Of a stretch of 64,000 nucleotides of DNA, positions 2,564 to 64,000 are shown piece after piece. Below the pieces are notes generated by a model that worked only from the letters and a program-made list of their open reading frames with translations, was not told the origin of the DNA and did not search any database. A program made the position numbers and the translations under genes. The stretch is from Perna viridis (taxonomy: Eukaryota): positions 5,580,001 to 5,644,000 of the forward strand of contig CM074517.1 in NCBI GenBank assembly GCA_037379345.1, given 5' to 3'. Positions within the stretch are counted from its first letter, which is position 1. Every line of letters starts with the position of its first letter.

Positions 2564-2845
2564 TCATAGTTTTTCCTTCTTTCATCTTCCGTACACATTG
2601 GACGTGGCATTTTGTGAGTATTCCGGAGAGTGTTTCTGGAATAAAAAGCAGAAGGCGCTTTAACTAGGTCCAAGATTACAGTTTTTGTGGAATCCGGGTG
2701 ATGTTGTCTCGTTTACTTACTTTCGTTTGTATATACGTGCTATTTTGGCTATTTCATATCGTTTGTTTAGTCTCATTCTGATTAATCGTTAATTCCGGTT
2801 TATGTTCTTTTTGATTACCGATCGAATCCTGGTTCCTTTAATTTA
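2564..2845 (+). mobile_element. Old, diverged Naiad-type PLE 3' terminal repeat
   Basis: Colinear with 10030-10317: tcatagtttttcc...gtgtttctggaa..aagcagaaggcgctt..cagtttttgtggaatccg...ttcttttt gattaccg..cctggttcc. Confidence 0.7.
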
Positions 2846-3214: not shown

Positions 3215-4722
3215 AACCTAACTGAAGATGAAACATTATTATTAGCTAAGGGTCTCAATTTCTGCCCAGTTCCCGGTCCTGTACACGAAACCATCCTGAC
3301 CGAGGAACTTGACAACTTCGCCAGGTGTTTGAGGATATAAGAGTACTTTAGCTCAAAAGAGAGTGAGGGACAAAATGAGAGTGATTCAGTAGATGAAAAT
3401 AACTATCGGTTTATAAAGAAAAGTGAGTGGGTCCCTAAAAAGAGCAAAAATTTAACTTTGGAATCATTTATTGATAATGTTAAATCTGACATAATAAGAA
3501 ATGTAAGGGTCAACATAGAGAGTCACGATAATTTAACAATAGGGGAACGTGCTGCAATTCAAGGTCTAAGGACCAATGACAATATCATAATAAAACCTGC
3601 AGACAAAGGCAGCGCTGTAGTGAGCATGAACAAATCCGCCTACATTAATGAGTCCAAGCGTCAACTTAAAGATGACCGGTTTTATATCAAATTAACAACA
3701 GACCCCACTCAATCCATTGCGGAAGAAATAAAAACTGAGTTAAACAGAATGTACGAAAATAACCACATTGGCGTTCAAACTCTTGAATATCTCAAACCTG
3801 AAAATTCTAAACCTCTGCTAATGGCCATCCAACAGAGAAAATTTCGGAATTTTTGGACTTTCATCTATGTTGAAAAGCTTCCATTATTTATAAAAGATAC
3901 GACTAATTACTAACAGAAGATTCAGGCTCTGAATCCCCTTCCACCAAACACCACTCTGGTCACTATGGACGTCACATCTCTCTATACCAACATTCCTCAC
4001 TCTGATGGTATCGAGGCTTGTAGAGAAGTATGGGACTCTCGGTAGGTCAAAGTTCCACCTACTGACTGCCTAGTCACTTTACTCATAATGGTTTTAAAAA
4101 AAGAACAATTTTACTTTTAATGGAGACCATTATTTACAAATAAATGGCTATGGGTACCAAAATGGCTCCGTCTTATGCCAATATTTTCATGGGAAAATTT
4201 GAAAAAGAACTACTTGAATCCTCCATAGAAAAGCCTCTGTCCTGGTATAGATTTGTTGACGACGTGGATATGAAGTTAACATATGACAAAGAAGAACTAA
4301 ACAATTTTATCGCACGTGCCAACAATCAACATCTTTCAATTAAGTTCAATCACGAAACATCTGCTACTAACATCTGATTTCTCGATACCTCCAGCACCTT
4401 ATGGGGGAGAGCTATCCACGGACCTATACTCCAAACCAACTGACACACATCAATATCTTATGCCTAAGAGCTGTCATCCATCGCACCTGACTAAGAGTAT
4501 ACTATTCAGTCAAGCTCTTAGGCTAAGGCGCATTTGTTCAAATGACGAATCCTTAAAAAAACGTTTAGGTCAACTGAAGAACAATTTAAGAAGAAGGGGA
4601 TATAGATACAAGACCATAAAAGAAGGTTTTAAAAAAATCATAATATCCCAAGAAGTAGTCTGTTACAGTACAAGGCAAAGAAAAAAGAACCCCTTGTGTT
4701 CTAACATACCACCCTGCGTTAT
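3215..4722 (+). mobile_element. Penelope-like retroelement (Neptune-type RT), frameshifted and 3'-truncated before the GIY-YIG domain
   Basis: Motifs across frames: [92 protein letters not shown]. Multiple stops and frameshifts. Confidence 0.9.
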
Positions 4723-4724
4723 AA

Positions 4725-4830
4725 AAAACGACAAACTAATGTCTCACCCCTATGTTCCATTTTTAGTAACGGCGGCCATGGTTTTCGAAGAATCATAAAT
4801 CCCTATTGATATATGCAGGATATCCCAACG
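4725..4830 (+). repeat. Helentron/HINE-like internal repeat unit, copy 1
   Basis: Similar to 5852-5960 (gtct.ac.cctatg.tc.atttttagtaa.ggcggccatg.ttttcga.gaatcataa.tcccta). Confidence 0.55.
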
Positions 4831-4845
4831 TATGTACCGAATGTA

Positions 4846-5851
4846 GTACTCTCTGTCAAAATAAAATTAATTTGACTCTATCGATATGAAAGGTTAGGGT
4901 ACCTGGTGAGGTTATAGGTCTTGGTCGTCTCAGGTTTAAAGATATCCGAAACACAAGATGAACAGATAAAAACATAAATTCCTTCTGACTAAATATAAAA
5001 AAGAGAGGTAACTGCTGCCTCGTATGAGTACATTGAACATTACAGAGGGAATTACATTATAAATGAACTCGTGAGCAAAATCATAATAATAATAATAAAT
5101 ACAGACAATTAATTCGTAAAACTGATTGGAAATATGCAGCAAATAGCTTACTGGAAACTTTGTTTAACTCAACAACTGAAAATAAATATTATGAAACAAT
5201 ACAATCAAGAAAATAAAAATAAACGTAAATATTTGCTGTTCCATGCTTAATCGGAGGGATAAGACAGATATTTATCGAAATAAACAAATGCAACTCATTT
5301 CGAAAGGTACCCATATTGAGTTTTGCTGGGATAGGAATATGAACACAATTATTCTTACATTGTACTCTCTGTAAAAACTAAACATAATTGACTCTATATA
5401 TATGGAAGGCTAGAGTACCTGATGAGGATGTACAGCCTTGGTCGTCTTGACCTAAATGATATCCGAAACACAAGATGAACAGATAAAAAGATAAGTCCCT
5501 ACTGACTAAATATAAAAATAGAGGTAACTGCTACCTCGTATGAGTACACTGAACATTACAAGAGAATAACATTATCAAAGAACTCGTGTGTAGAGAATAT
5601 TAATAATTACAAACAAACGATCAAACATTAAAACTGATTGGAAATATGCAGCAAATAGCTATCAGAAACTGAAAATAAATATAATGAAACGATATAATCA
5701 AGAAAATAAAAATAAACGTAAATATTTGCAGTTCCATGCTTAATCGGAGGGATAAGACAGGTATTTATCTAATTAAACAAATGCAACTCATTTCGAAAGG
5801 CATTGGTATTGAGTTTTGCTCGGAAAGGAATATGAACACGTTTATTCTTAC
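4846..5851 (+). repeat. Two-unit tandem repeat (period 516 bp), each unit starting with a hammerhead-ribozyme-like motif
   Basis: Units start at gtactctctgt (4846 and 5362) and end at tattcttaca. Similarity is high throughout. Each unit has CTG(A/G)TGA...GAAAC with flanking stems. Confidence 0.85.
5362..5474 (+). ncRNA. Candidate hammerhead ribozyme (second copy at 4842-4957)
   Basis: Stem I gtactct(5362-68)/agagtac(5412-18), core CTGATGA 5419-25, stem II ggatgt(5426-31)/atatcc(5459-64), GAAA 5465-68. Stem III is weak in this copy. Confidence 0.45.
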
Positions 5852-6030
5852 AACGAAAAACTACTGTCTGACACCTATGCTCTATTTTTAGTAATGGCGG
5901 CCATGTTTTTCGACGAATCATAACTCCCTAAATTACTTCTATACAGAATACCCCAAGGAACATTCAAACCAAGTTTCGTTTCAGTTGGTCAAGTAGTGTC
6001 AGAGGAGAAGAGTTTTGAAAAATTGTTTTT
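5852..6030 (+). repeat. Helentron/HINE-like internal repeat unit, copy 2
   Basis: ggcggccatgttttt...accaagtttc...cagaggagaagagtttt motif set, typical of molluscan non-autonomous Helitron-related repeats. Paralogous to 4725-4830. Confidence 0.55.
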
Positions 6031-8934: not shown

Positions 8935-10317
8935 ACGATGATTGTGATTTACCGTCTATGTACTGGATTTCTAAACTCCACAAGAATCTATACAAAGAAC
9001 GTTTCATAGCTGGATCTGCAAAATGTACCGCCAAACCTCTTTCAAAAATTTTAACTGCTATACTCACAACTGTCAAAGAGGGTCTGCAGTCCTACCACAA
9101 CACTTGTTACTCCCGTAGTGGTATCAATTCAATGTGGATTCTGAAAAAGATCTTTTGGAGACAATCAGTTTAAGACTATTATCTAAATATAATAGCATTA
9201 AAACTTATGATTTTTCAAAACTGTATACTTCCATTCCCCATACTCAGTTAAAATCCCGACTTAAAAACATTATACATCGTTGTTTTTCCAAAAAGATGGT
9301 ACGCCTAGATACAAATATATAGTTCTTGGTAGAGATTCCTCATACTTTGTAAGAAATAATTCCAAATAATCTTCCAAATATACAGAAGATGTTTACAAAA
9401 TGCTGGAATTTTTAATCGACAACATATTTGTCCAGTGTGGTGGACGTGTTTTTCAACAAACGGTCTGCATTCCAATGGGAACAAATTGTGCTCCTTTACT
9501 TGCGACCTATTCCTTCACTCTTATGAGACTGACTTTATAGTTGATCTGATGAGAAAGAAAGAATATCGTTTGGCTAGATCTTTCAATCTCAGTTTTTGCT
9601 ATATAGATGACGTATTATCTTTAAACAATCTTAATTTCGGGGATTTGATACATCGCATCTACCCAAAAGAACTTGAGATAAAAGATACTACAGACACTGT
9701 GAAGTCAGCCTCATATCTTGACCTACACTTAGAAATCGATGGTAAAGGAAAATTATTGACCAAACTTTACGAAAAACGTGATGACTTTTCATTCAGAATT
9801 GTCAACTTTCCTTTCATCTGTGGCAACATCTCTTCGGCACCTGCGTATGGAGTGTTCATATCACAACTCATACGTTATGCCAGAGCTTGCCGAAACTACG
9901 CAGATTTTTTGTATCGCGCTAGAACTGTAACAAATCGGCTTCTGGAACAGGATTATGTTGCTACAAGACTGAAGTCATCACTACAGAAGTTTCATAGTCG
10001 TCATCATGAACTTGTGGATCGTTATGGGTCATAGTTTTCCTTTCTTCCTCGTTTGTCTACCCCGGACTTGACTTTTTATGAGCAACTCGACCGGTGTTTC
10101 TAGAAAAGCAGAGGACGCTTATCCTACCGATGCACCTGGTCCATGCTCCCAGTTTTTAGTGGAGTCCGAGTTGCTCATTTGCTTTTGTTACTTTGTATGT
10201 ATGATTTTAGTTACTTTATGTTCTTTGTTGTGTATGTCTGTTTTCCATGTTTGGTCTTTGTCCCTGGATTACATTCTTTTGATTACCGCTATAACCTTGG
10301 TTCCCTTGATTACTCTT
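8935..10317 (+). mobile_element. Naiad-type PLE: RT domain plus 3' terminal repeat (pseudo-LTR), degenerate
   Basis: LPSMYWISKLHKN..ERFIAGSAKCTAKPLS, KTYDFSKLYTSIPH, IPMGTNCAP, YIDDVLSLNN, IYPKELEIKDTT, ASYLDLHL, IVNFPF..NISSAPAYGVFISQLIRYARAC. The RT ends the protein with no C-terminal endonuclease. The terminal repeat spans 10030-10317. Confidence 0.9.
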
Positions 10318-11451: not shown

Positions 11452-13565
11452 GAAAAACAAAGAAAATAAAATAACTAAAATAACACATACAAAGAACCAA
11501 AAGTAAATGAGCAACTCGGACGCCACTATAACCTGGGGGCAGGGACCATGTTCACCGGTAGGATAAGCGTCCTCTGTTTTGCAAGAAACATCCATCGAGT
11601 AGCTCATAAAAAGACAAGTCCGGGCTAAACGAAAGGAAAAAGGAAAACAATTACACATTGAACAAACCAATTTTCATGGTGCAGATGGATACACCACAAT
11701 GATCCACGAGTTCATGATGACGACTAATGAACATTTGTACTGATGACTTCAATCTTGTAGCAACATAACTCTGTTGCAGACCCCTAATTGTAAGAAGTCT
11801 AGCGTGGTACAAAAAGTCTGTGTGCTTGCGGCAAGCCTTGTCATAACGTATACTTTGTGATATAAAAATTCCATACGCAAGTGCTGAAGGGACAAATGGA
11901 GATGAAAGAAAAGTTGACAGTACGGAATAAAAAAATCATCACGTGTGTCGTATAGTTTGGCCAATAAATTTTCTTTACGATCAATCTCTAAGTGTAGGTC
12001 AAGATATGAGGCTGACTTTACAGTGTCTGCAGTATCCTTTATCTCAAGTTCTTTGGGGGTAGATGCGATGTATCAAATCCCAGAAATTAGGATTGTTTAA
12101 AGATAATACGTCATCTATATAGCGAAAACTGAGATTGAAGGACCTAGCTAAACGATGTTCTTTCTTTCGGATTAGATCAGCTATAAAATCAGCCTCATAA
12201 GAGTGAAAGAATAGGTCAGCAAGTAGAGGAGCTCAATTTGTTCCCATTGGAATGCAGACCGTATGTTGAAAAACGCGTCCACCACACTGGACAAATATGT
12301 TGTCGATTAAAACTCCAGCATTTTGTAAACATCTTCTGTATATTTGGAAGATGATTTGGAATTATTTCTCACAAAGTATGAGGAATCTCTACCAAGAACT
12401 ATATATTTGTATCTAGGCGTACCATCGTTTTGGAAAAACAACGATGTATAATGTTTTTTAACTCGGGATTTTAACTGAGCATGGGGAATAGAAGTATACA
12501 GTGTTGAAAAAGCATAGGTTTTGATGCTACTATATTCTGATAATAGTCTTGAACTGATTGTCTCCAAAAGATCTATTGAATTTCTTTAGGATCCACATTG
12601 AATTAATACCACTACGGGAGTAACAAGTGTTATGGTAGGACTGCAGACCCTCTTTGACAGTCGTGAGTATAGAAGTTAAGAAGTTTTGAAAGAGGTTTTG
12701 TGGTACATTTTGCAGATCCAGCTATGTAACGTTGTATGTATGAATTCTTGTGGAGTTTAGGAACCCAGTACATAGACGGTAAATCACAATCATCGTCTTT
12801 GGTAGAGAGACCAATAGAGGTTAGCACCATTTCTTCTTTGGAGAGTGTGGTAGCAGTATTGGTTTTATCACTGCTATTACTTTCTACGTCTACCTCTGAT
12901 AATAGATATTGTATGCAAAACGTTGTGCGAACGAAAGAATGTTTTTTGGGCTTTGTCTGCTGGTACGACAGCATATTATCATGTATAGTAGACTATGTTT
13001 TTGCTACATTGGGGTCTTTGAAAACTGATGTAGCATTGGCACTCATTGACGTACTTAAAACTTTCATTCGTTTCAGAATTAAAGACCTCACGGCCTTTAA
13101 CCACTCTGACAGAGAATCAATGTCTTCTTGTTCTCGTTTTATCCATTTTCTTCGGTATTCCTCCACGGCATCCATAAGAACTTTAAAGTTATAATTCCAA
13201 TTTATGGAGCGTGGTTCACGGTACTTGGGACCTTTAGAAAGGATATTATGCAGAGATTCGTTTTTGATGATGGACAAATCTCCCGTAACGACGTGACAGG
13301 AAGGACCATATTTGAATTGAGAGTTTTTGCAAGAACAGTCATGTGGTTTAGCCTTGAAGTCCTCAATTTCGAGGTTCTGCAATGGCCTTTTTTAATTGAA
13401 AATGTTGGATGCAATGGGTGAAGTATAGGAATATGAAATAATTGGTATGGATTTGTCTTTGAAATATGGGCGAATGTTGTTGGTAACGTTTTTGTGATGG
13501 AGGGTGTTTTTATTAATTAATCGTATCTATACCTTTGTTGACAAACGGTAGTGGAAGAAGGTCTT
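11452..13565 (-). mobile_element. Inverted Naiad-type PLE copy: CxC linker, RT and terminal repeat
   Basis: KPHDCSCKNS..CHVVTGDL (CxC linker), LSKGPKYREPRSINW, LPSMYWVPKLHKN..QRYIAGSAKCTTKPLS, KTYAFSTLYTSIPH. Terminal repeat at about 11452-11660. Reverse complement of 8935-10240 and 10950-11450. Confidence 0.9.
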
Positions 13566-15306: not shown

Positions 15307-15469
15307 ACCGGTGCACCTGGTCCATGCTCCCAGTTTTTAGTGGAGTCCGAGTTGCTCATTTACTTTTGTTACTTTATATGTATGATTTTAGTTACTGTAT
15401 TTTCTTTGTTGTATATGTCTGTATTACATTCTTTTGATTACCGCTATAACCTTGGTTCCCTTGATTACT
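15307..15469 (+). mobile_element. Naiad-type terminal repeat, 5'-truncated
   Basis: accggtgcacctggtccatgctcccagtttttagtggagtccgagttgctcat...ccttggttcccttgattact, near-identical to 10126-10314 apart from an internal deletion. Confidence 0.9.
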
Positions 15470-17982: not shown

Positions 17983-18205
17983 AAGAGTAATAAAGTGAAC
18001 CAATATTCTTGTGGAAATCAAAACGAATTTAATTCAGGGACAAAGACCAAACACGGAAAACAGATACACACAACAAAGAATATAAAATAACTAAAATAAT
18101 ACCTAAATGTACACAGTAACAAAAGTAAATGAGGAACTCTGACTCCACTAAAAACTGGGAGTATGAACCTGGTTCACTGGTAGGGTAAGCGTCCCCGATT
18201 TTCTA
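17983..18205 (-). mobile_element. Naiad-type terminal repeat inserted in the L1 RT
   Basis: Reverse complement of about 10097-10317. It interrupts L1 ORF2 just after FADDTQLINK. Confidence 0.85.
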
Positions 18206-19924
18206 TTCTCTGAAGTCTTTCCGGTTTATTAATGAGTTGAGTATCGTCCGCGAACATGTTTAATTTGGCTTCAATGCCATACCCCGCCCTCGACCGAAGG
18301 TGTATTCCCTGAACATTAGGATTCCCCTTAATTACTGCCGCAAATGGTCCAGCTTGTAAGATGTATAACATCTGTCTGATAGGGCACTCTGATGTATAGA
18401 ACGGGATATCCCTATTTATTTCGAAACAGGCCATTAATCTGAATGCACGTCTTCTCATTTTCGAATAGCATAGAAACCCATCACCTAAATTTTTGCCCAA
18501 TTTTGTTTTGCATACATAATTCTATCCACTCCCATTCAACTCTATTGAAAGTTTTTTTGTTGATGTAGAAATATAATCTCTTAATCACCCATCTCTGCAT
18601 AATCTATAATATCTTGAAGCAGTATATTACCATGAGAGATATTATACACCTTACCGAACTCCTCTTGATAAGTATCTATGATCCTAGGTAATACATGTTT
18701 AACCTTCTGCCATCCACTTCAAAATAATTAATAATTTTATAGTCTCTACTTTAAAGTGTAATTGGACGGCCAGTTTGTAATATCCTCAATTTCCCCTAGG
18801 TTTGAACATAAGTGTAATTACTCTTTTATATTGTATGTCACACAATGAATTTGTATCTAGAATCTCATTAACCACACTACAAAAATCTTCTCCTCTAAGA
18901 TACCAATAAAGTTTATAAAACTCTCTTACTGTCCCATCCTCTTCTCTGGTTTATTTAAAAAAAACAATAAATTAAAATGGCGTCTATACTCTCTCTGTAA
19001 TCCCCATTTGCTGTCTGTACATTGTTCAGAGTTTTTCGCATTCCCTCCTTTTTTTCTAAATTAAAACAAAATATTTAGTGGGTTTCTCCCCATTCTAATA
19101 CAATATACCGAGGATATTGTAATAGCTGCATCCGATTTTTTCTTCTATTTTTGAAGTATTTATCTTATCATTGTAGTCAGGTTTATTTTCGTCCTTTTTT
19201 AATCTCTGTTCCATTGTTTAACTACTTTTTTTTTTTAGATATGTTCAATTTTTTAGAGACTTCAATAGAAAGATGTCGTCGATTTTAGGCATATATATTC
19301 GATCTAGTTCTTCATTGAACGTATAGTTAAAATCGCCAAGTAAAGCGTTTTTCCCCAACATTTACTCGGATTTCGTCAATAACAAATATCTGTAGTGTAC
19401 ATATATGTTAGGAGCATCTATGTTAAAAATATATAGACATGGTTCATTAACCGTTTTAACTCGACATGAAACAATCCTTCCAAGAGTGTCACACATATTT
19501 GTTCGATGTCATGGTTAAATTTATCAGAAAAAATACCCAAACCGTTAGATTTACTAGTTTCATGACACCACAAACTGTCCATGTACTTTTTACCTCATTT
19601 GAACTACGCGTTTCTTGACTGCATATATTCTCGGTTATGTTCTGTTTACACTAATTGAAAATTGCATCGTGCTGTTTATACCATACCATTCAGATTTAAT
19701 GTTATAAAGGAGATCGTGATATAAGTACAATCATTACAATAAATAGGCACATGTTAACCATTCAGACAACAACAATATACCATAATTTAATAGGGGAACA
19801 TTTGTCGTATTTTTTTCTATGACAAACAGTCTATGACAGGCAGGTGCTCGCGTCTGTTACGCGTACAATAGCCAATCGCAACATGCAAAGTAAAAGTAGT
19901 CCAGTAACATTCAGCTATTCCTAA

Positions 19925-22429: not shown

Positions 22430-23409
22430 TCTATCATACATATCATAATAACAAGTCTTCACAATGCAATTGTCTGTATTCATCGGCTTAAACCAATAGT
22501 TAATTATTTATTAATATTTCTTTATAAACATTGGAAAGCTTCCAGGCTCTCAGTAAACTATATAATTAACTGTTGATGTCCTGACTTTCAAGATTCGTTT
22601 CATAAAGTTAAAATGTACCTTTACAATATCATCTGACTTTTGATGTCCCCACACTTCATGTGCACAGTATGTAATAATGACAATAAAGTTTCATGATTAA
22701 ACCAATCATCATGAATTTTGTTATTCAAACTAATCAAAGCTTTTCTATCCCGATTGGCTAATATCTTTTTAGCATGGGCTAAATAACCGTTACAATATAC
22801 AAATGTAAACAATTTTATCGTACGTTTCATTAGGATTATCATTTATAAACCACTTTTCGTCAGTCTTCACTACTCCTCTATTTCTAAAAGCAACATATTT
22901 TTTTGGCAAATGTATGTTCAAACCATATTCCACAATCAATCCTATTTTGTAACTCAGTAATACTCTCACTAAACAAAAGAGAGTCGTCGGCATACATAAT
23001 AAGAAACAGATCTAACATTTTAGTTCATATGGTTGACATCCTTGTCTTATCAGTTTAACTTCCATATCATTAACATATAATAAATGTGTGATAAAGTTTC
23101 CCCTTGCATGAGGCGAATACTGCAATTGAACTATACTTACACCTGCAAAATACTTGCGTTAGTTTTTTCTTGCAAATTTTTATATTTTTTATCTTGAAAA
23201 TTTTGTAATTTAACCTTATTCATTTGTGTGTCAAAAAATCTTTTTAATAATTAAAAAAAAATTGTACATCACTTCAAACACTATTTGCTCATTGAAAATA
23301 ATTATTTCTGTAGAAAATAACCCCCTAAAATGAATTTCAATAAAAGCTTATAAAATGATACATGAAACGTCATTTTATTTATTAACACATTGTTGATTCT
23401 TATTACCAG

Positions 23410-24488
23410 GACCTGGACTAGATGATTCACTAACTGTTGAATTGAGTAAGATGCTATTTGATTTGATGGCAAAAAAGAAGAACGAACGTGCATTGCTTGT
23501 CAACCCTCGTAATGTGTTCTCTCCAGAGTATTTGTCATTTATCATATATGGTCAAACCGTTTTAAGCGTGGTTTCCATTATTATATTAGTGTTTTTGCAT
23601 TACTTGCTCTGGGAGCCAAATTTTTTTAAAGTGTATGGCCTAATGTCATTGTATACATCAATGGACCTGATTAATCTTACCATAGAAAGCTGTCTTAATG
23701 CTGCAATATACTTCCGCGGGAAGGAATATATAGAATTTGATTGGTGTTACCCTTATTTAACCGTTCAAATTGCAGTTCCTTTGTGTTTGTGTTTCTGTAG
23801 CCAATGGTTAAAGGTTGCACATGCGGCGCAAAGGATGGTGATTGTTTACTTCCCTATGACATATACGCGTTATTTTGACAAAAGGAACATAGTCATTCTG
23901 ATGTGTTGTGTTATAATGCTAGCACTGACGATAGCTGGTGTACATATTTGGAAATTGTCTATACAAAAAGTCACTATTCCAGACAAGGAAGAACTGGAAT
24001 TTGTTGACGTTTGTATATTTGGACATAAAAGGATGAAAGATAGACGTCTTCGTGGGGATACCGATGTTCTTGCAACAACTGTTATTGCTCTTATACTAAG
24101 CGAAGTATTGCCACTGTTTATTATGTCAGTTTTGTGTGTAATGATGATCAAAAAGATCCGAAAACAGAATTTGTTTAGACGCCAATTCTTGAAATCTGGA
24201 GAAGCCCTTGACAATACAGACAAGTTGCTTGTTATATTAACTTTAACCACATTATTCACTGTTGTTTCCTCAGTTCCAAGAACTGTAGATTACATGATTT
24301 CAATCGCCACCGAATTGGGCGTTACTACAGCAGATAAGCGTAGTATCATTCAGATGATTGACAGAGTTTTACGTAACTTTTCTTCATTTGTTATATTCAT
24401 ACTGTATGGAAAACTATCAGGAAAAGTCCTGCAGACTTTAAGACAAATATTTAATTGGGGGAAAGCTAGCAGTTTTGGTACCAATTAA
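23410..24488 (+). CDS. Terminal coding exon of a divergent class A 7TM GPCR, sex-peptide/MIP-receptor-like (paralog B)
   Basis: Intact 348-aa ORF, colinear with paralog A (NPR, LHYLLW, MSLY, GKEYIEFDWCYPYL, QWLKVAHAAQRM, PMTY.RYF, KIRKQNLFRRQF, SSVPR). In-frame phase-1 acceptor ttcttattaccAG at 23408-09. An internal ATG at 23451 is an alternative start. Confidence 0.88.
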
Positions 24489-26924: not shown

Positions 26925-27197
26925 AGAGTGGTCAATGAACCAAAATTCTAGCGAAAATCAAAAGAATGTAATCCAGAGACAAAGACCAGACACGGGAAAT
27001 ATACAAACACAAGAAAGAACATAAAGTAACTATTATAATACATACAAAGTACAAAAGTAAATGAGCAACTCCACTAAAAACTAGGAGCATGGACCAGGTG
27101 CACCGTCAGGATAACGCCCTTTGCTTTTCTAGAAACAGCCGCCGAGTAGCTCATTAATATATCAAGTCCGGTGTAGAAGAAAGAAGAAAGGAAAATG
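26925..27197 (-). mobile_element. Solo Naiad-type terminal repeat
   Basis: Reverse complement of 10034-10317, including atgagcaac...ggaccaggtgcacc...ttttctagaaac...gagtagctcat. Confidence 0.85.
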
Positions 27198-34560: not shown

Positions 34561-34865
34561 CGTCAATTAAAAAGGCAACTGATACACTATCATCTAACCA
34601 AATCTAGAATCTGAATTTTACATTGTTCATATAGTACATTTAAAATCGAAAGTTTATAATAACCATGGTGAATCGTGCTGTTAACCTCCCCTTTCTCACT
34701 GACAATAAACTAAAAACGTTGTCAGTGTATTGGGAATACATATCATAGCTGTCGTGCATGCGATTTGTACACTGACTTTCTTAGTAAAGCGAGGATAATG
34801 TGGAAAAAAAACATTATAAGACACGGGCATATCTAGGCTTGATTGATACCATTACAGCATAAATT

Positions 34866-35531
34866 ACTACAGACACTGTGAAGTCATCCTCATATCTTGA
34901 CTTGCACTTAGAAATCGATGGTAAAGAGAAACTATTGACCAAATTTTACGACAAACGTGATGAGTATTCATTTAAAATTGTCATTTTCCTTTCATCTGTG
35001 GCAACATCCCTTCAGCACCTGCGTATGGAGTGTTCATATCACAACTCATACGTTATGCCAAAGGTTGCCGAGACTACAGCAGACTTTTTGTATCGCGCTA
35101 GAATTCTAACAAATAGGCTTCTGGAGCAGTGTTATGTTGCTACAAGATTGAAATCATCACTACAAAAGTTTCATGGTCATCATCATGATCTCATGGATCG
35201 TTATGGTATATCCATCTGCGCCATGAAAACTGATTGGTTCAACGTGTCATAGTTTTCCTTTCCTCTTTCGTCTACCCTGGACTTGACTTTTTATGAGCAA
35301 CCCGGCGGGTGTTTCTAGAAAAGCAGAGGACGCTTACCCTACCGGTGCACCTGGTCCATGCTCCCAGTTTTTAGTGGAGTCCGAGTTGCTCATTTGCTTT
35401 TGTTACTTTGTATGTATGATTATAGTTACTCTATGTTCTTTGTTGTGTATGTCTGTTTTCCATATCTGGTCTTTGTCCCTGGATTACATTCTTTTGATTA
35501 CCGCTATAACCTTGGTTCCCATGATTACTCT
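34866..35531 (+). mobile_element. 5'-truncated Naiad-type PLE (RT C-terminus plus complete terminal repeat)
   Basis: SSYLDLHLEIDGKEKLLTKFYDKRD...KFHGHHHDLMDRYGISICAMKTDWFNVS*. Terminal repeat near-identical to 10030-10317. Confidence 0.92.
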
Positions 35532-37504
35532 TTCATCATATTGTCCATGTTGTATTTGCATGAATCGTTTCTTTATTCCGCAAACACTTTTTAACAATGG
35601 CGTTGGGTTCTGATGTCTCTTTATTGCCCTGTTGTTTTGATGCTTGTAAATGTTTCTTTTTCTTCATTAAAGTTTCTTTTTCGACGACGAATGAATTATG
35701 TTCATGTTTTGGAAATAATTTTGCAATGGTCAGTTATAACACCTTAATTGACGTATTGCCGACATGAAATGTTTTTGTTATCGATTTGCATCTTCGTCCA
35801 TGAAGGGATAATTGGTAAGTATTTATTTAAAAGGTCAAATGTTTTCTGAGTGATTTTCAGACTTTTAATGTAAAGCTGGGAAAACGTACTTTTTAAGAAC
35901 ATATGATTGTAAAAATTTGAGGTCAACTTAAACATCAGGCTATGTGATAGTACGTACATCAATACGAATAACTCGTACGAAAAAAAAAGAAAATGTGTGA
36001 ATAATAAATGCGCTTAATTTTGTACAATAAAACTTGATTTTTTGACTTGATTCACGTATAAATGCTTGATAAATGCATTCAAGTCATCAGAAGTGTGTAC
36101 AAGTAGTATTTTAACCCTGTATAGATTAGACTGGTTATAAAGTAAGCTATGTTTCTGTTTTACATTGTTTACATTGACTATTTATTGATTTGTTTCCCTT
36201 GTGTTAATTTTACTTTTGCAGTATGTTCTTCTCATTCAGCAAGAGTTTTACCTCACTTAATTGGCTATCTTATATAATTTCGGGCTCTTTAAATTTGAAC
36301 TTTATTTTCATGCTCCCTTGATTGTAACTATGTATAGAAGTGATTTTGCGTGCTCATAATGTATAGATAGTGTATGACATGTACTTTATGAAGTACATTA
36401 TATAAGTTAAACGTGATGATTTTCAATTTTCTTGATTACATATCGTGCACAAAATGTAATTTTCTTTAGAATTCTAAATTTAGTAGCATTTTTTATATAA
36501 CTGTGTGGGTGTTCAAAGATATTCGAATATGTAGTTTTACCTTTGGGAAAGATTGAACGGAACTACTAGCTTTTGTTTGCCACTAATTGTCGCAAGTAAA
36601 ACAGGATCTAGAGCAGATTTTTTTCAAAGCAGAAAGAACCGCTTATAAATCATTTTTATGAAACAGCAAAAATATATATATATAGTAATAAACAGGAAAG
36701 GAAAGAAAACGATTGGAAATTTAATATTCTCATACAAATTGACTCTTCTCAAAACCATGTTTTTTTTTCAGTCGCCCCTTTTTTCTGACCAGGAAGCGAA
36801 ACAGTAAACCATCTCCATCATTAATCTAACCGATATGAAAAGGGAAATTATATAATATTTGTTTGTAATTCTCCCCATAGAACAATATTCAAAGGTACAA
36901 TTAATGAAATGCACGAATGTGCGTAAGTTTGATGCATTAAAAAGTGTTAAAGCAATGAAATAAGGAAATGCCATATTAACAACATGAGATTATTTCTCTT
37001 TTTATTACATACAATGGGCAATTTAGATTTAATAAATACTAGTAATTAAGACCCATTCGCCTAGTTTATGGTTCTATTAGAGTCGAATTGGAACATTTCA
37101 AAGAAAATATTGATAGTAATAGTATCGAATTCACATTAATCTAAAACTTAATTGTCGTGAATGTATTTCTAAATCCAAGTAATATCTGAAAATGAATTTA
37201 ATTTATTTGAAAGCTGTCTCTGCCTTTTTTACTAATTTTATTTGTTTTGCTCGGTCGATGTTGTCAGTTGAATCAGGCACAAATTATTTTTGATTCTCAT
37301 TGATCTGATCAGCTGTTATTTCAAAATAAACAGAAATAAGGCCTAAAAGGCCACTACATGTACATGTAGATTCAACTGGATTTAAATTCGTTCGGTATGT
37401 AAATATAAGAAGAACTGAATTAATTTACAAGTGAGAAAAAACTTTAACCCTAATCTTTTAAATAGATTCAAATAAAGGATCTATAAATGAGTAGATTTTC
37501 ACCA

Positions 37505-44867: not shown

Positions 44868-45144
44868 AAGAGTAATCAACGGAAGAAAGATTCGGGCGGC
44901 ATTCAAAAGAGTGTATTCCAGAAAAAGACACTACCCTGGAAAAATAGACAGAACAAAGAACATAAAATAAGCTAAATAACACGTACAAAGAAACTAAAGT
45001 AATTGAGCAACCAGAACTCCATAAAAACGTACCGCATGGACCAGTACCCCGGGAGGGTGTCACCTGTGTTTTCTAGAAAAAATCCGCCGAGTCATAAGAT
45101 ATAACGCCCAGTGAAGACAAAAGCGTAAAGAAAAACTTTGACAC
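44868..45144 (-). mobile_element. Diverged solo Naiad-type terminal repeat
   Basis: aagagtaatcaa...aaaagagtgtattccag...tgagcaacc..actcca.aaaaac..gcatggaccag...ttttctagaaa..ccgccgagt...gaaaaactttgacac. Confidence 0.75.
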
Positions 45145-49428: not shown

Positions 49429-49543
49429 TTTCTTCTTCTTCTTTTTCTTCTTTCTTTCTTTCTTTCTTTCTTTCTTTTCTTCCTACTTCTTTTTTACTTC
49501 TTATTCTTCGTCCTCTTCTTCATATTCTTTTCTTTATTATTAT
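49429..49543. repeat. Compound CTT/CTTT/TTA microsatellite
   Basis: Read directly from the sequence. Confidence 0.9.
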
Positions 49544-49561
49544 TGAAGAGCTTATGATGAC

Positions 49562-49977
49562 CAAGTCATAGTTTTCCCTCGTTTTTATCTGGTGTGTGTA
49601 AGTTGACAGTTTTCAAGTCATAGTTTTCCCTCGTTTTTATCTGGTGTGTGTAAGTTGACAGTTTTCAAATCATAGTTTTCCATCGTTTTTATCTGGTGTG
49701 TGTAAGTTGACAGTTTTCAAGTCATAGTTTTCCCTCGTTTTTATCTGGTGTGTGTAAGTTGACAGTTTTCAAATCATAGTTTTCCATCGTTTTCATCTGG
49801 TGTGTGTAAGTTGACAGTTTTCAAGTCATAGTTTTCCCTCGTTTTTATCTGGTGTGTGTAAGTTGACAGTTTTCAAGTCATAGTTTTCCCTCGTTTTTAT
49901 CTGGCGTGTGTAAGTTGACAGTTTTCAAGTCATAGTTTTCCATCGTTTTTATCTGGTGTGTGTAAGTTGACAGTTTT
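49562..49977. repeat. Homogeneous minisatellite, 52 bp x 8
   Basis: Unit caagtcatagttttccctcgtttttatctggtgtgtgtaagttgacagtttt, with starts at 49562, 49614 and so on. Confidence 0.97.
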
Positions 49978-52900
49978 CTCGTTTTCTTGGCAACATCTTT
50001 GATATCAGAGATGTTCGACAAACCTGAAGCGTACAAGTTATATGAAGTTCATCGTCCTAATAAACATCATTACGGATATTTTTACTTTAAATGTATTTTA
50101 TCTCTCCAATAAAAAGTATAAATGTTTTCACCTAATATAGATGCCAATGGTTGCGCCTTTTACCTTAGTTAATCGGGCCTTTTACCTTAGTCAAAACACA
50201 CAAGGGCAATGGTCTGTCCGAAAATTTTTAACCCTAATTGAATAGTGTTAACAACTAATTATAACATCAACACACACTCTGTAATGAAATATTCTAAAAA
50301 GTATTGTTCTTATATCTTAAACTTTTAAAATATTGCGATAACTTTGGTCTCGTATACAATTTACTTGAGAAACTTCCTTAATTCTTGGTTAAATAGCTGC
50401 TGATGAAAAACGTGTAAATCATACAAAAATTTACAATATGTTTAGGATTGGTATTTTTGTATTATGGCAGTCATCTGTCATTCAATGTTCTCGTTTCTCA
50501 TTAACATGAAGTAATTACCTGTAGACTAAGTTTCTAGTCAAATTTATCAAAATCGTATACGATTAGGATAATTTGACTTAAAAAAAATCCTATGGAGATT
50601 GCTTTCTATCGATTTTAATTCGAATATAAAATTTCTTTGGTCATGCTTTCGAAGGAATGGTAGTTACGCGATGTATTGATAGTGACATTTGTCTCTTTTA
50701 AAGAAAACACCCATCTTAGAATAATATTTAAAATAAAAATAAGTGGATTTTTATTAAGTGATTATGGTCACTTTTTTCTTAAGAGAAACTTGTGGTGTAT
50801 ACAGGACAGAAATGTATGATACAAAGAGACAATAAGTTACCATAATAACATTTTTTTCAAATCTATAAATAAGATATGTTATGTTGATATGACATAAATG
50901 TACCTTTTGATACGATAAGAAATTTTTTGTCATTTATTCACTATTCATGGTCGACTATTAATGTCCTTGATAAGACTAGATTTAAAACCACAAAAGAACT
51001 TTTAAACATAAACATATCTAATGCATTTGAGGTCTATTTATCTTAACGTTTCATGATGTTTCCATCACGCGTGCTTTTCATTGACTATCCCAATGTTTAT
51101 CTTTTTTATCATCTTCGTAATCAACTTTTCATAGCGAAATCGCAAAACGACACTTAAGGGAAATAACTTATTCAATTTTTAATACAAAAACCTAATACTG
51201 TTTCTTTTAGGATTGTTGGCTGCTTATTATGTGAGCGTATATATACTTTAAAGCATTACGAACAAATTCATATAAGCTTTAATTAAGGAACAAAGGAAAA
51301 TTCATATAAGAGTTATGATGGAATGAAACAAAAACCTTTTTTTTTTTGGTATCTTAATTTCTGTATTCCTTTCTGGTTAATTCAAAATTTAAAACTGTGT
51401 GAGACGAATAGATAACTTGGACGTTATAACCAGAGAATGATGCTTTTCACTATGAATGTACGCGATGGTTACACATCTAATGCAAGGACATAGTATTTAT
51501 CTCGTCCGATTATTTTTATGGCTGAAAACATCTGTATGACAAATCCTTAAAAAAATAACAGCCTTTTCAATGCATAATATCAGTGTGCCTCGTTTTCACA
51601 TCATTAAATCACCCAATAGAATAAAGTAAAAACAACATTAATGTTTCGTAAAGAAATTAAAGGTACAAAATACATTAGAATTTCTGTAATGTGTATCATT
51701 GTCTTATAGGCAGTTGAAGGACGCATCTCAAAGAGTTAATCCAGAATAAACGACAATAAAAGAGATAATATCAACAATATCAATTACTTAGCAATAATGG
51801 AATCACTCGTTAAAACATTCAGAGCCATTCAGAATTGCTTTCGTAATTACTAAAAGATGTAAAGGAATAGCATTAAAAAATGTCTTTCAACAGAATAATA
51901 ATTTCAGTTAAAGTCAGATTCAGATATGGTTTAGAACATAAATCTTAAAAGTGAATGTAATTATTTAACGCGAATCCCATTATATAGGCAGAACCTATAA
52001 TAATAGTGCAAACATTTAATTCAGCAGTGAGTGTTACATGCAGCAATGCCTTTCATTCTGACATATATAAAATAAAAACATTGTACAAAGAAAAAGTCAA
52101 CCTACAAATAACCGATTTTATATACTACCAATTTTCAAGTTCATCTTTTACGTAGTAACAGACTAGAACAATGGTTTGTTAGCTACTCTACTTTTCTGTT
52201 ATGATATAAATGAAACAAAATATCCCATAAATGTCTTTTTTTTTTCAATTCCAAAAACTCAAACAGTAAAAAATATAACACATGTACATAAATTTGAACT
52301 TCACTGTCAGAGATATTTCTGATGACACCATCTAAAATTTGCAAAAAAATCCTAACAACAAAAAAGGTTTGGCGTATAAAATGCAATAGCCTACATTGAA
52401 CAGTTAATGGTGGCATGGTCATACTTGAAGTAGCAAGCAAAATAAAAACTGGCAATATTTTTTACTTTTAAGCTAATAATGTGCTGAGAATATGTCGACC
52501 TACAGGCAAACCGATTTTGCTATTTTGCGCAACCTATTGTCTACCCAACTTAGGTGAATGTGTAAAAAGTATATTTCAAATTTGAATAGTATTCTCGATT
52601 CGTAATGTTACTTTATGCCAATTGTTTAAAAATATAGTATTCAACATACTGTAAGCTTCGAAATCGTATCGCGGACATTCTGATATTTTTACTTGTGTAA
52701 ATAATATATACATGTATGCAATCACACGTCTCTATATGTTATAGACTTCCACAGTTATGCACTTTAAATCATCATATGGAATTAATTTCATATTTTAAAA
52801 GATCAAACAGAATGGGATTTATCAAAGAAATAGAGAATTCCTCGTGGGTTTTGTAATTTAACCTTAAATACACTGTATGAACGTGGACATTTTAAGAATG

Positions 52901-62269: not shown

Positions 62270-64000
62270 ATCATGGCACCTTCAGAGAGAAGACACAGAG
62301 AACGTTATCATACTGAAGAGCACACATAGCACCTTAAGTGAAGCCAATAACAGTGTCATCATACTAAGAATGAGACAAGGCACCTTCAGAGAGAAGCCAA
62401 AACGAACGTTATCACACTAAAGAGCACACATGGCGCCTTCAAAAAAGTCGGAAACAACATCGGCATTACCGAGGAGAATATGGAACGTTCATAGAAGCCA
62501 ATATCAACGTTAGCATTACTGAGTGGTAAATATGGTACATGTACCATCAAAGAAACTAAAACCAACGTCATCAATCTGAGGAGACGAAACCAACGTGATC
62601 GTATTGAGCAGTTCACACGGCATATTCAGAGAAACCAAGACTAATAACAGAATTAACAAGAACACAAGGCACATTCAGAAAAGCCAAATGCAACGTCCTA
62701 ATATTGACACCCTTAGGAAAACCTAAACCAGCGTCATCCGACTGAGAAGTACACATGCTCCACAGAAGCCAATACCAACGTCATCTCTACCGAGGTGTAA
62801 ACATAGCATATTCAGAGAAGCCGAAGCAAACGTCATTGTACCTGGGGAATACACATGGCATCTTCAGAGATTAAATATGCCAAAACTAACATCATGATAC
62901 TGAGGAATTGACATAGCACCTTCAGAAAAGTCTAAAACCAACATCACTATACTGAAAAATACTCATGGCACCTTCAGAAAAGCCGTTACAAAAATCAGCA
63001 TTATCGGGGAGTACACAAATACACAAAACACTTTCAGAAAAGCCTTAAACAACGACATCATACTGAGGAAAACACAAAACACTAAACTGGCGTCAGCTTT
63101 TCCGATAACAATTCACATTCAGAAAAGCCAAAACCAACGTATCGTACTGGGGAGTACACATGACTCCTTCAGGGAGCAGAAACAAATATCAGCATTTCCG
63201 ATGAGTACACATGGCACCTTCAGAGAAACCGAAACCAACGTCATCATACAGATGAGAACACAAGACTTTTCCAGATTAGCCGAAACCAACGTCGTCGTAC
63301 TGAGGAGTACACGCGATCCTTTCATAGTATTTGAAACAACGTCATTATATTGTGGAGAACACATGACACATTCATAAAACCCTTAACTGGCATTAGCATC
63401 TCCGAGTACACAATTCACATTTAAAAAAAACAAAAACCAACGTCATCGTACTGAGGAGTACACATGGTACATTAAGAAAATTCTAAACCAACGTAATCAT
63501 TACTGAGGATTACACATAACACCTTCAGAGAAGCCGAAACCAACGTCGTCATCTTTACTGGGGATTACAAATGACACCATCAGAGAAGCCGAAACTAACG
63601 TCATCATTACTTCGAGATGCACATGACACCCTCAAAGTAGCTTAAGTTAACACCATATTACTGAGGAGTACACATGACGCCTTCAGAGAAGCCGAAACCA
63701 ACGTCATCTTCACTGAGGAGTACACTTGACGCCTTCAGAGAAGCCTATGTCAACGTCATATTACATAGGAGTACACATGTAACCTATAGAGGAGACAAAA
63801 CAAACGTCACCAATACTGAGGAGTACACATGGAATATTCAGAGAAGTCAAAACCAACGTCGTCGTACTGAGTAGTATACATGATCCTTTCAGAGTATCTG
63901 GAAACAACGTCATCATACTGTATAACACATGGCACATTCAGAGAAGCCTAAACTAGAGACAGAATTTTCGAGTACACAATTCACATTCAGAAAACTAAAA
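62270..64000. repeat. Satellite array with ~51-bp monomer, running off the window end
   Basis: Consensus acacatggcaccttcagagaagccgaaaccaacgtcatcatactgaggagt, about 33 diverged copies. Confidence 0.92.

Follow-up and report, generated by a model that had tools for sequence, protein, structure and literature searches.

The motif at positions 35293-35393 of the window (the whole 64,000-nt stretch of Perna viridis DNA analysed here) is a real, deeply conserved RNA family without an Rfam match, located in the 3' UTR of a Naiad Penelope-like element (PLE). Covariation across families confirms a conserved RNA structure and, as reasoned below, the motif most likely works as a dimer. Our preferred reading, to which we assign a probability of about 0.5 from sequence comparison, is that it is a dimer-activated self-cleaving ribozyme of a new class, which would replace the dimer-dependent hammerhead of other PLEs.

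The motif starts 41 nt 3' of the stop codon of a Naiad reverse transcriptase (RT) frame (34863-35252), and 227 nt separate its GGGUG from the 3' end of the element. A long copy of the same Naiad family (L210) has an uninterrupted 870-aa frame in the order GIY-YIG, CxC, DKA, RT that defines Naiad PLEs (PMC8557442). The GIY-YIG endonuclease was recognized by eye N-terminal to the RT in this frame and in the upstream sequence of full copies, a CxC motif is present, and DKA replaces DKG, as defined for Naiad in the same paper. A Pfam search of the host protein returned RVT_1 only, and weakly (E 0.0044). Full copies have a partial 3' copy immediately upstream (a partial tandem, or pLTR); we found 106 exact pLTR/body junctions in the genome and a head-to-tail array of ∼15 units with a period of 3,409 bp, a unit that falls in the 3.4-4.4 kb Naiad range. 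The host thus shares with the Naiad clade of PMC8557442 the N-terminal GIY-YIG, CxC, DKA, RT, the partial tandems and the 3.4 kb length, and the domain order and partial tandems bear out the Naiad identity proposed in an earlier sequence-only reading of this DNA. That reading had also stated that the canonical hammerhead is absent, and none of 30 junction regions contained a hammerhead core, nor did Rfam match one on the motif. SECIS and selenoprotein features of Naiads are absent as well, the 870-aa frame being open under the standard code and no SECIS Rfam match being found. The available portions of Craig et al. 2021 (PMC8557442) report no hammerhead for Naiad and mention no structure like the motif, and the accessible text of its supplement mentions no palindrome, pseudoknot or hairpin. 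The features of the host copy and of its motif, all on the + strand, are as follows.

34863..35252, +: C-terminal part of a 5'-truncated, decayed Naiad RT ORF (open frame; compare L210)
35293..35305, +: closing stem, 5' strand, pairs with 35381-35393 (12/13 pairs with double changes)
35306..35311, +: 5' strand (CGGGUG) of inner stem P1, partner of 35348-35353, invariant G-U included (18/18, invariant; columns fixed by the search patterns)
35312..35321, +: loop-less palindrome 1 of 10 nt, predicted to form an intermolecular helix (5/5 pairs with double changes)
35324..35326, +: CAG, unpaired and invariant, candidate core (alignment; 12/12 published consensi by eye)
35327..35331, +: 5' strand of the pseudoknot, partner of 35354-35357 and 35359 (5/5 double changes, 97.8% of cells paired)
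35332..35339, +: GCUYACYC strand, conserved and a candidate for the core (alignment)
35341..35346, +: loop-less palindrome 2 of 6 nt (other families: 6-8), predicted to form an intermolecular helix (2/3 double changes, 81.5% paired)
35348..35353, +: P1, 3' strand CACCUG (alignment)
35354..35359, +: pseudoknot, 3' strand, 35358 bulged in the 35 kb copy's family (alignment)
35360..35380, +: side hairpin; its loop varies in both length and sequence (4/5 pairs with double changes)
35381..35393, +: 3' strand of the closing stem (alignment)
35394..35533, +: U-rich remainder of the 3' UTR, as far as the 3' end of the element (loose ends at 35532-35535)

The last 38 nt of the element (35493-35530) are duplicated in many transcribed copies, which matches the 30-40 bp PLE tail, and the joint of this duplication is seen in RNA-seq reads. 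The head-to-tail array, at G000:C3:46030378-46081545 (L335-L339), consists of full-length Naiad units that are 99.9% alike over the 1.5 kb compared. The genome also holds several low-copy Naiad families with differing palindromes and pseudoknot sequences (L164-L189), among them one that is old and CpG-decayed and one that is young (L172, L182-L184, L189).

The strings quoted in the sequence-only reading lie at 35293-35393 and 10078-10179, as given, and the eight copies of different ages that it listed in the window (2.6, 10.1, 11.5, 15.3, 18.1, 27.1, 35.3 and 45.0 kb) are all real by BLAST. A covariance model built in the present analysis, of which the 35 kb copy is itself a part, recovers six of the eight at E < 1e-4, with the 45.0 kb (E 0.13) and 2.6 kb (E 0.24) copies weak; the 15.3 and 18.1 kb copies start within the motif. 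The seven further copies are the following.

2612..2720, +: heavily decayed old copy (BLAST; covariance model E 0.24)
10078..10179, +: complete second motif copy (89.1 bits, covariance model)
11493..11609, -: decayed copy, end of a longer Naiad with a CxC region at 12993-13391 (56.8 bits)
15307..15373, +: copy truncated at palindrome 2 (BLAST and covariance model)
18115..18224, -: copy truncated within the motif (BLAST and covariance model)
27044..27159, -: decayed copy (42.6 bits)
44989..45101, -: heavily decayed old copy (BLAST; covariance model E 0.13)

Over the 723-Mb Perna viridis genome the core pattern has 8,788 matches, and none when the pattern is read backwards. Rfam returned nothing relevant at gathering score for the whole window, and with E up to 10 nothing on the motif within the 601 nt around it, where four snoRNA noise matches (E 2-6) appeared; pistol, hatchet, hairpin, twister-sister, glmS and other Rfam families gave no covariance-model match on the motif. 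No description of it was found in the literature covered, with subscription papers, Dfam and Repbase notes and figures falling outside this coverage.

The alignment retains the long closing stem, the tttctagaaa palindrome and the ctcc/ggag side hairpin of the sequence-only reading, each with the double changes listed above; within the closing stem, the change at 35302 is private to the 35 kb copy. Its 7-bp cgggtgt/gcacctg stem exists only as the 6-bp P1, which never varies; the seventh pair is part of palindrome 1 and shows no double change across representatives. Two of its hairpins do not hold: aagc/gctt is pairable in 88.9% of cells but has a double change in 0/4 pairs, and acc/ggt has no loop and is the second palindrome, 35341-35346. 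The 5-bp pseudoknot between 35327-35331 and 35354-35359 was absent from that fold, and all five of its pairs covary. A pairing of CAG with CUG is 100% compatible but invariant and, by reasoning, would exclude a pseudoknot between the same strands; it was rejected. The YACYC of the GCUYACYC strand is able to pair alternatively with GGGUG. Since single-sequence folding is weak for the 35 kb copy (z = −1.82, compared with −4.33 for the 10 kb copy), the case for structure rests on covariation.

The sequence-only reading had made its fold depend on covariation across Naiad families, and this was found. From 119 loci of a metagenome scan and 26 more from a genome search for other families we aligned 18 hand-picked family representatives, in which 28 of 37 pairs show double changes and four helices and two palindromes hold. 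Paired cells amount to 87.1%, against 72.7% in shuffled alignments (0 of 500 shuffles reach the observed value) and 40-44% in slid controls. Because related sequences can exceed shuffle controls and the choice of representatives was not blind, two further tests were needed. When 154 matches were clustered by flanking sequence without picking, the resulting 40 medoids kept 174 of 200 palindrome-1 pairs and 177 of 200 pseudoknot pairs, many of the mismatches stemming from one old CpG-rich family; the corresponding counts in 13 chance prokaryotic core matches were 32/65 and 24/65. Those 13 lack the helices and come from a total of 14 prokaryotic matches, and viral contigs gave none. The remaining match, L153 (RAYO01000111.1, a 407-bp scaffold of a bacterial genome), is probably contamination, as its motif is nearly identical to that of a published bivalve Naiad. 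Among variable cells, G-U (43) outnumbers A-C (18), which points to the plus-strand RNA; a minus-strand fold was rejected on these counts.

These data make it very improbable that the motif is a chance folding of the repeat or a feature acting at the DNA level. The modest single-copy z-scores of decayed copies, and the fact that relatedness can beat shuffle controls, are what such an explanation could draw on; it leaves unaccounted for the compensatory changes in every variable helix over four phyla, their lack in chance core matches and the G-U excess on one strand.

At least 12 of the 54 published Naiad consensi (consensus file of PMC8557442) carry the motif. CGGGTG occurs at 15 places in the file, 11 of which are the motif; the twelfth instance, split by a line break, was found by reading. 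Two Clytia, five bivalve and four hemichordate consensi are represented, plus the last record of the file, a fish by file order; this record and the first Clytia record were assigned without a header check. The carriers are therefore cnidarians, bivalves and acorn worms, and likely a fish. By eye, 58/60 pseudoknot pairs are kept, 60/60 palindrome-1 pairs are kept in 10 different sequences, palindrome 2 is self-complementary in 12/12, and the CAG, GCUYAC and CACCYG core is present in 12/12, all of these features lying outside the selection term. One Clytia consensus combines a flagged hammerhead core with the motif, the latter by file order. Three Clytia Naiad records in the PMC8557442 supplement share another GC-rich conserved 3' UTR stretch, upstream of the motif in two of the three, which is possibly another structured RNA.

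In metagenome loci of divergent families, the motif lies downstream of RTs only 54-72% identical to that of the 35 kb copy's family. A same-strand RT match was found upstream in 30 of 106 loci, and an opposite-strand match in one. Where the RT match of a divergent family extends to the C-terminus, the motif follows at 81-207 nt. This sense-strand position in the 3' UTR is what an RT-recognition or priming element, like the 3' UTR of non-LTR elements, would occupy. We consider such a role, raised in the sequence-only reading, unlikely: mussel and clam Naiads, whose RTs are related, lack the motif in the 3' ends examined, and the distance from the motif to the 3' end varies among families. In addition, 43 or more of the 116 plain 5' ends fall on the 3' side of GGGUG+50, and short insertions hold little or no motif, which is compatible with any template role and supports none. 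The RNA that Poseidon needs, together with its priming stem-loop, is found directly beyond the pLTR junction (PMC11167929). Naiads have a strong hairpin at the pLTR/body junction, within the first 60 nt after it (−24.3 kcal/mol; L310-L339), conserved in five published records and in mussel records without the motif. This hairpin is the better RT-site candidate, since it is kept in mussel Naiads that lack the motif and is placed like the Poseidon site. It also appears to covary in bivalve and hemichordate records.

The invariant core, the pseudoknot and the place directly past the stop codon would also suit an element controlling stability, localisation or translation, which might bind a conserved host factor or block exonucleases. 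This is improbable in our view, as it leaves the obligatory palindromes unexplained and the motif has no Rfam similarity at E up to 10.

The palindromes bear most directly on function. Palindrome 1 forms 83 of 90 Watson-Crick pairs against a shuffle mean of 28.4, and its innermost positions are complementary in 18/18 representatives with four pair types, something a hairpin would not require. The 10-mers have predicted energies of 0 to −1.2 kcal/mol as hairpins and −7.1 to −23.1 as duplexes. Since neither palindrome has a loop, they would pair only between two RNAs, and the dimer is predicted to be favoured by 4.0-16.6 kcal/mol in 18/18 in a calculation without a pseudoknot or concentration term. 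The dimerisation suggested in the sequence-only reading on the basis of one palindrome is strongly supported as a prediction, by two instead.

Both palindromes adjoin the inner end of P1. In the geometry we propose, two intermolecular helices would hold together a strand-swapped dimer, in which the partner's strand passes P1 between the shared helices, carrying CAG, the pseudoknot strand and GCUYACYC. Each P1 would become a three-way junction closed by this strand of the partner, the pseudoknot would form between molecules and the core would be assembled in trans, so that the halves need each other. That the motif is an obligate strand-swapped dimer ribozyme, with an active site made of one molecule's P1 and the partner's core strand, is in this model a little short of an even chance. 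The alternative GGGUG/YACYC pairing, whose sole variation is C/U opposite G and which also appears in the predicted fold, may, speculatively, hold a lone copy in an inactive off state. Partial tandems and head-to-tail arrays would put at least two motifs in one transcript, and cleavage would for this reason be confined to multimeric RNA, releasing unit-length (3.4 kb) templates.

Perhaps the motif is instead a non-catalytic dimerisation signal, its palindromes linking a pair of Naiad RNAs and so supplying two templates to a dimeric RT-endonuclease; we regard this as the less probable of the two, though a serious rival. It would explain partial tandems and inverted insertions, with the invariant core as a protein-binding site or folding switch. 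Both palindromes are kept for self-complementarity and not for sequence, as such a signal would be, but invariant unpaired bases across four phyla are not needed for dimerising alone, and a sister motif of the same slot, described below, has a ribozyme-like core. PLEs are not known to package dimeric genomes. The Poseidon protein is a predicted dimer that extends both DNA strands (PMC11167929), and Ty1 RNA dimerises via PAL1 and PAL2 next to a pseudoknot (PMC6844567). Like Ty1, the motif has a pair of palindromes with a pseudoknot nearby in the RNA of a retroelement; it differs in residing in the 3' UTR of a capsid-less PLE, in palindromes that are self-paired and free to change between families, and in the invariant core between them.

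Insertion ends and RNA ends give no sign of a cleavage site. Of 180 loci anchored at the 3' end, we used 150 after dropping 4 duplicates, 22 with internal indels and 4 tandem rejoins. Their 5' ends fall in the motif at 32 per 10,659 nt at risk and beside it at 62 per 27,939 (3.0 versus 2.2 truncations per 1,000 nt at risk; p 0.17). No sharp site appears in the motif, and the largest 5-nt windows hold 5 ends at four different places. Among the 25 upstream pLTRs outside arrays, 15 contain the motif in full. In one raw RNA-seq run (21,029 reads in both orientations) there was no end pile-up at the motif; the reads are mostly host read-through (a fraction of 0.71 continue into unlike sequence), and because of this and of the two orientations they demonstrate presence in RNA and not independent expression. 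The lack of an RNA or insertion end pile-up favours the non-catalytic dimerisation signal. It lowers the odds of a ribozyme only a little, because the anole Poseidon hammerhead is equally invisible: according to PMC11167929 it gives no such reads in RNA-seq and requires protein, and insertion in vitro can do without it.

The ribozyme reading is supported by the slot itself: the pLTR of other PLEs contains hammerheads, and the palindromic helix III of these suggests that they act as dimers (PMC4209133). The minimal type I hammerheads of PLEs (Cervera and de la Pena 2014, PMC4209133) share with the motif the pLTR/3'-end location, palindromic stems without a usable loop and an activity that should arise only once a tandem transcript brings a pair of copies together. 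The motif lacks their CUGANGA/GAAA core, has two palindromes, a 5-bp pseudoknot and a closing stem, and is unrelated in sequence; the shared palindromic stem needing a second copy is a working principle and not membership. In the window itself, a canonical PLE with a DKG motif (3341-5930) has a hammerhead-like core in each of its two terminal repeats (5419-5468 and 4903-4951), recognized by eye and below the Rfam gathering score.

Against a ribozyme, the core of the motif matches no known catalytic motif. In HDV-like ribozymes the P1 5' strand, a linker, the pseudoknot strand and the P1 3' strand follow in this order, and P1 opens with an invariant G-U after C; their hallmark is a nested double pseudoknot with P3/L3, P1.1 and the J4/2 catalytic C. 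The motif has the same strand order and the P1 G-U after C. It lacks P3/L3, P1.1 and a J4/2 catalytic C and has no Rfam match, its pseudoknot 3' strand follows directly after P1, and in the alignment one G stands between P1 and the pseudoknot strand. The catalytic C75 of the HDV ribozyme is listed in Table 1 of PMC5408937. Compared with the twister features given in the same paper, the motif has one pseudoknot and lacks the U-A site in L1, P2, P4/L4, T1 and T2.

Published mussel and clam Naiads, in which the motif is absent from the 3' ends examined, carry a different conserved motif at this position, which likewise contains two self-complementary stretches. Its pattern has 180 matches in the Perna viridis genome (e.g. 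L460-L479, G000); 11 of 20 loci have a 39-57% identical same-strand RT upstream, and at one further locus an 80% RT match lies farther off and is probably another insertion's. We mapped its core by hand to the twister features in PMC5408937: U-A-A, P2, the T2 dinucleotide and P3, P4 with G-C and U-A, T1, and termini in P5, with the P1 of twister replaced by two palindromes. In 12 sister loci P4 is 100%, T1 91.7%, T2 95.8% and P2 50% paired, with little covariation, the core columns being fixed by the search pattern and the loci decayed. Rfam did not call it twister, and a twister-P5 model run over the genome gave no match, though its controls were silent too. The sister motif is possibly a dimer-dependent twister variant that Rfam misses, a strong lead rather than a result. 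It shares with our motif the slot, a closing stem, pseudoknots and the two self-complementary stretches; the cores are wholly different, our motif being without the U-A-A site, the GAGG strand and the P4/L4 loop. Literature searches found no printed description of it. Pistol, hatchet and twister-sister were found by same-slot logic (PMC10085705), and if the sister motif is a twister, the same argument applies here.

Around ten classes of self-cleaving ribozyme are on record (PMC10085705) and new ones are rare; the candidate here is spread over several animal phyla and reaches copy numbers in the thousands per genome. If the ribozyme reading is true, Naiads would have swapped at least two unrelated ribozymes, the motif and a palindromic twister variant, into the slot of the dimeric hammerhead, and the view that Naiads lack ribozymes would be overturned. 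If three unrelated folds in this slot all use palindromes, the function that is conserved would be shown to be the sensing of a second copy. Without catalysis, the motif would still be a signal for dimerisation in a retroelement that has no capsid, and the tandem and inverted insertions typical of PLEs could be explained by it. Why dimer-dependent RNA motifs occur in PLEs, and how Naiads succeed in the absence of hammerheads, becomes a question that a 100-nt transcript can test.

Elsewhere in the window, two paralogous intronless frames of ∼355 aa (670-1734 and 23397-24488) resemble seven-helix membrane receptors. A homogeneous 52-nt tandem array is found at 49458-50081, and a degenerate array with a ∼52-nt period at 62270-63994.
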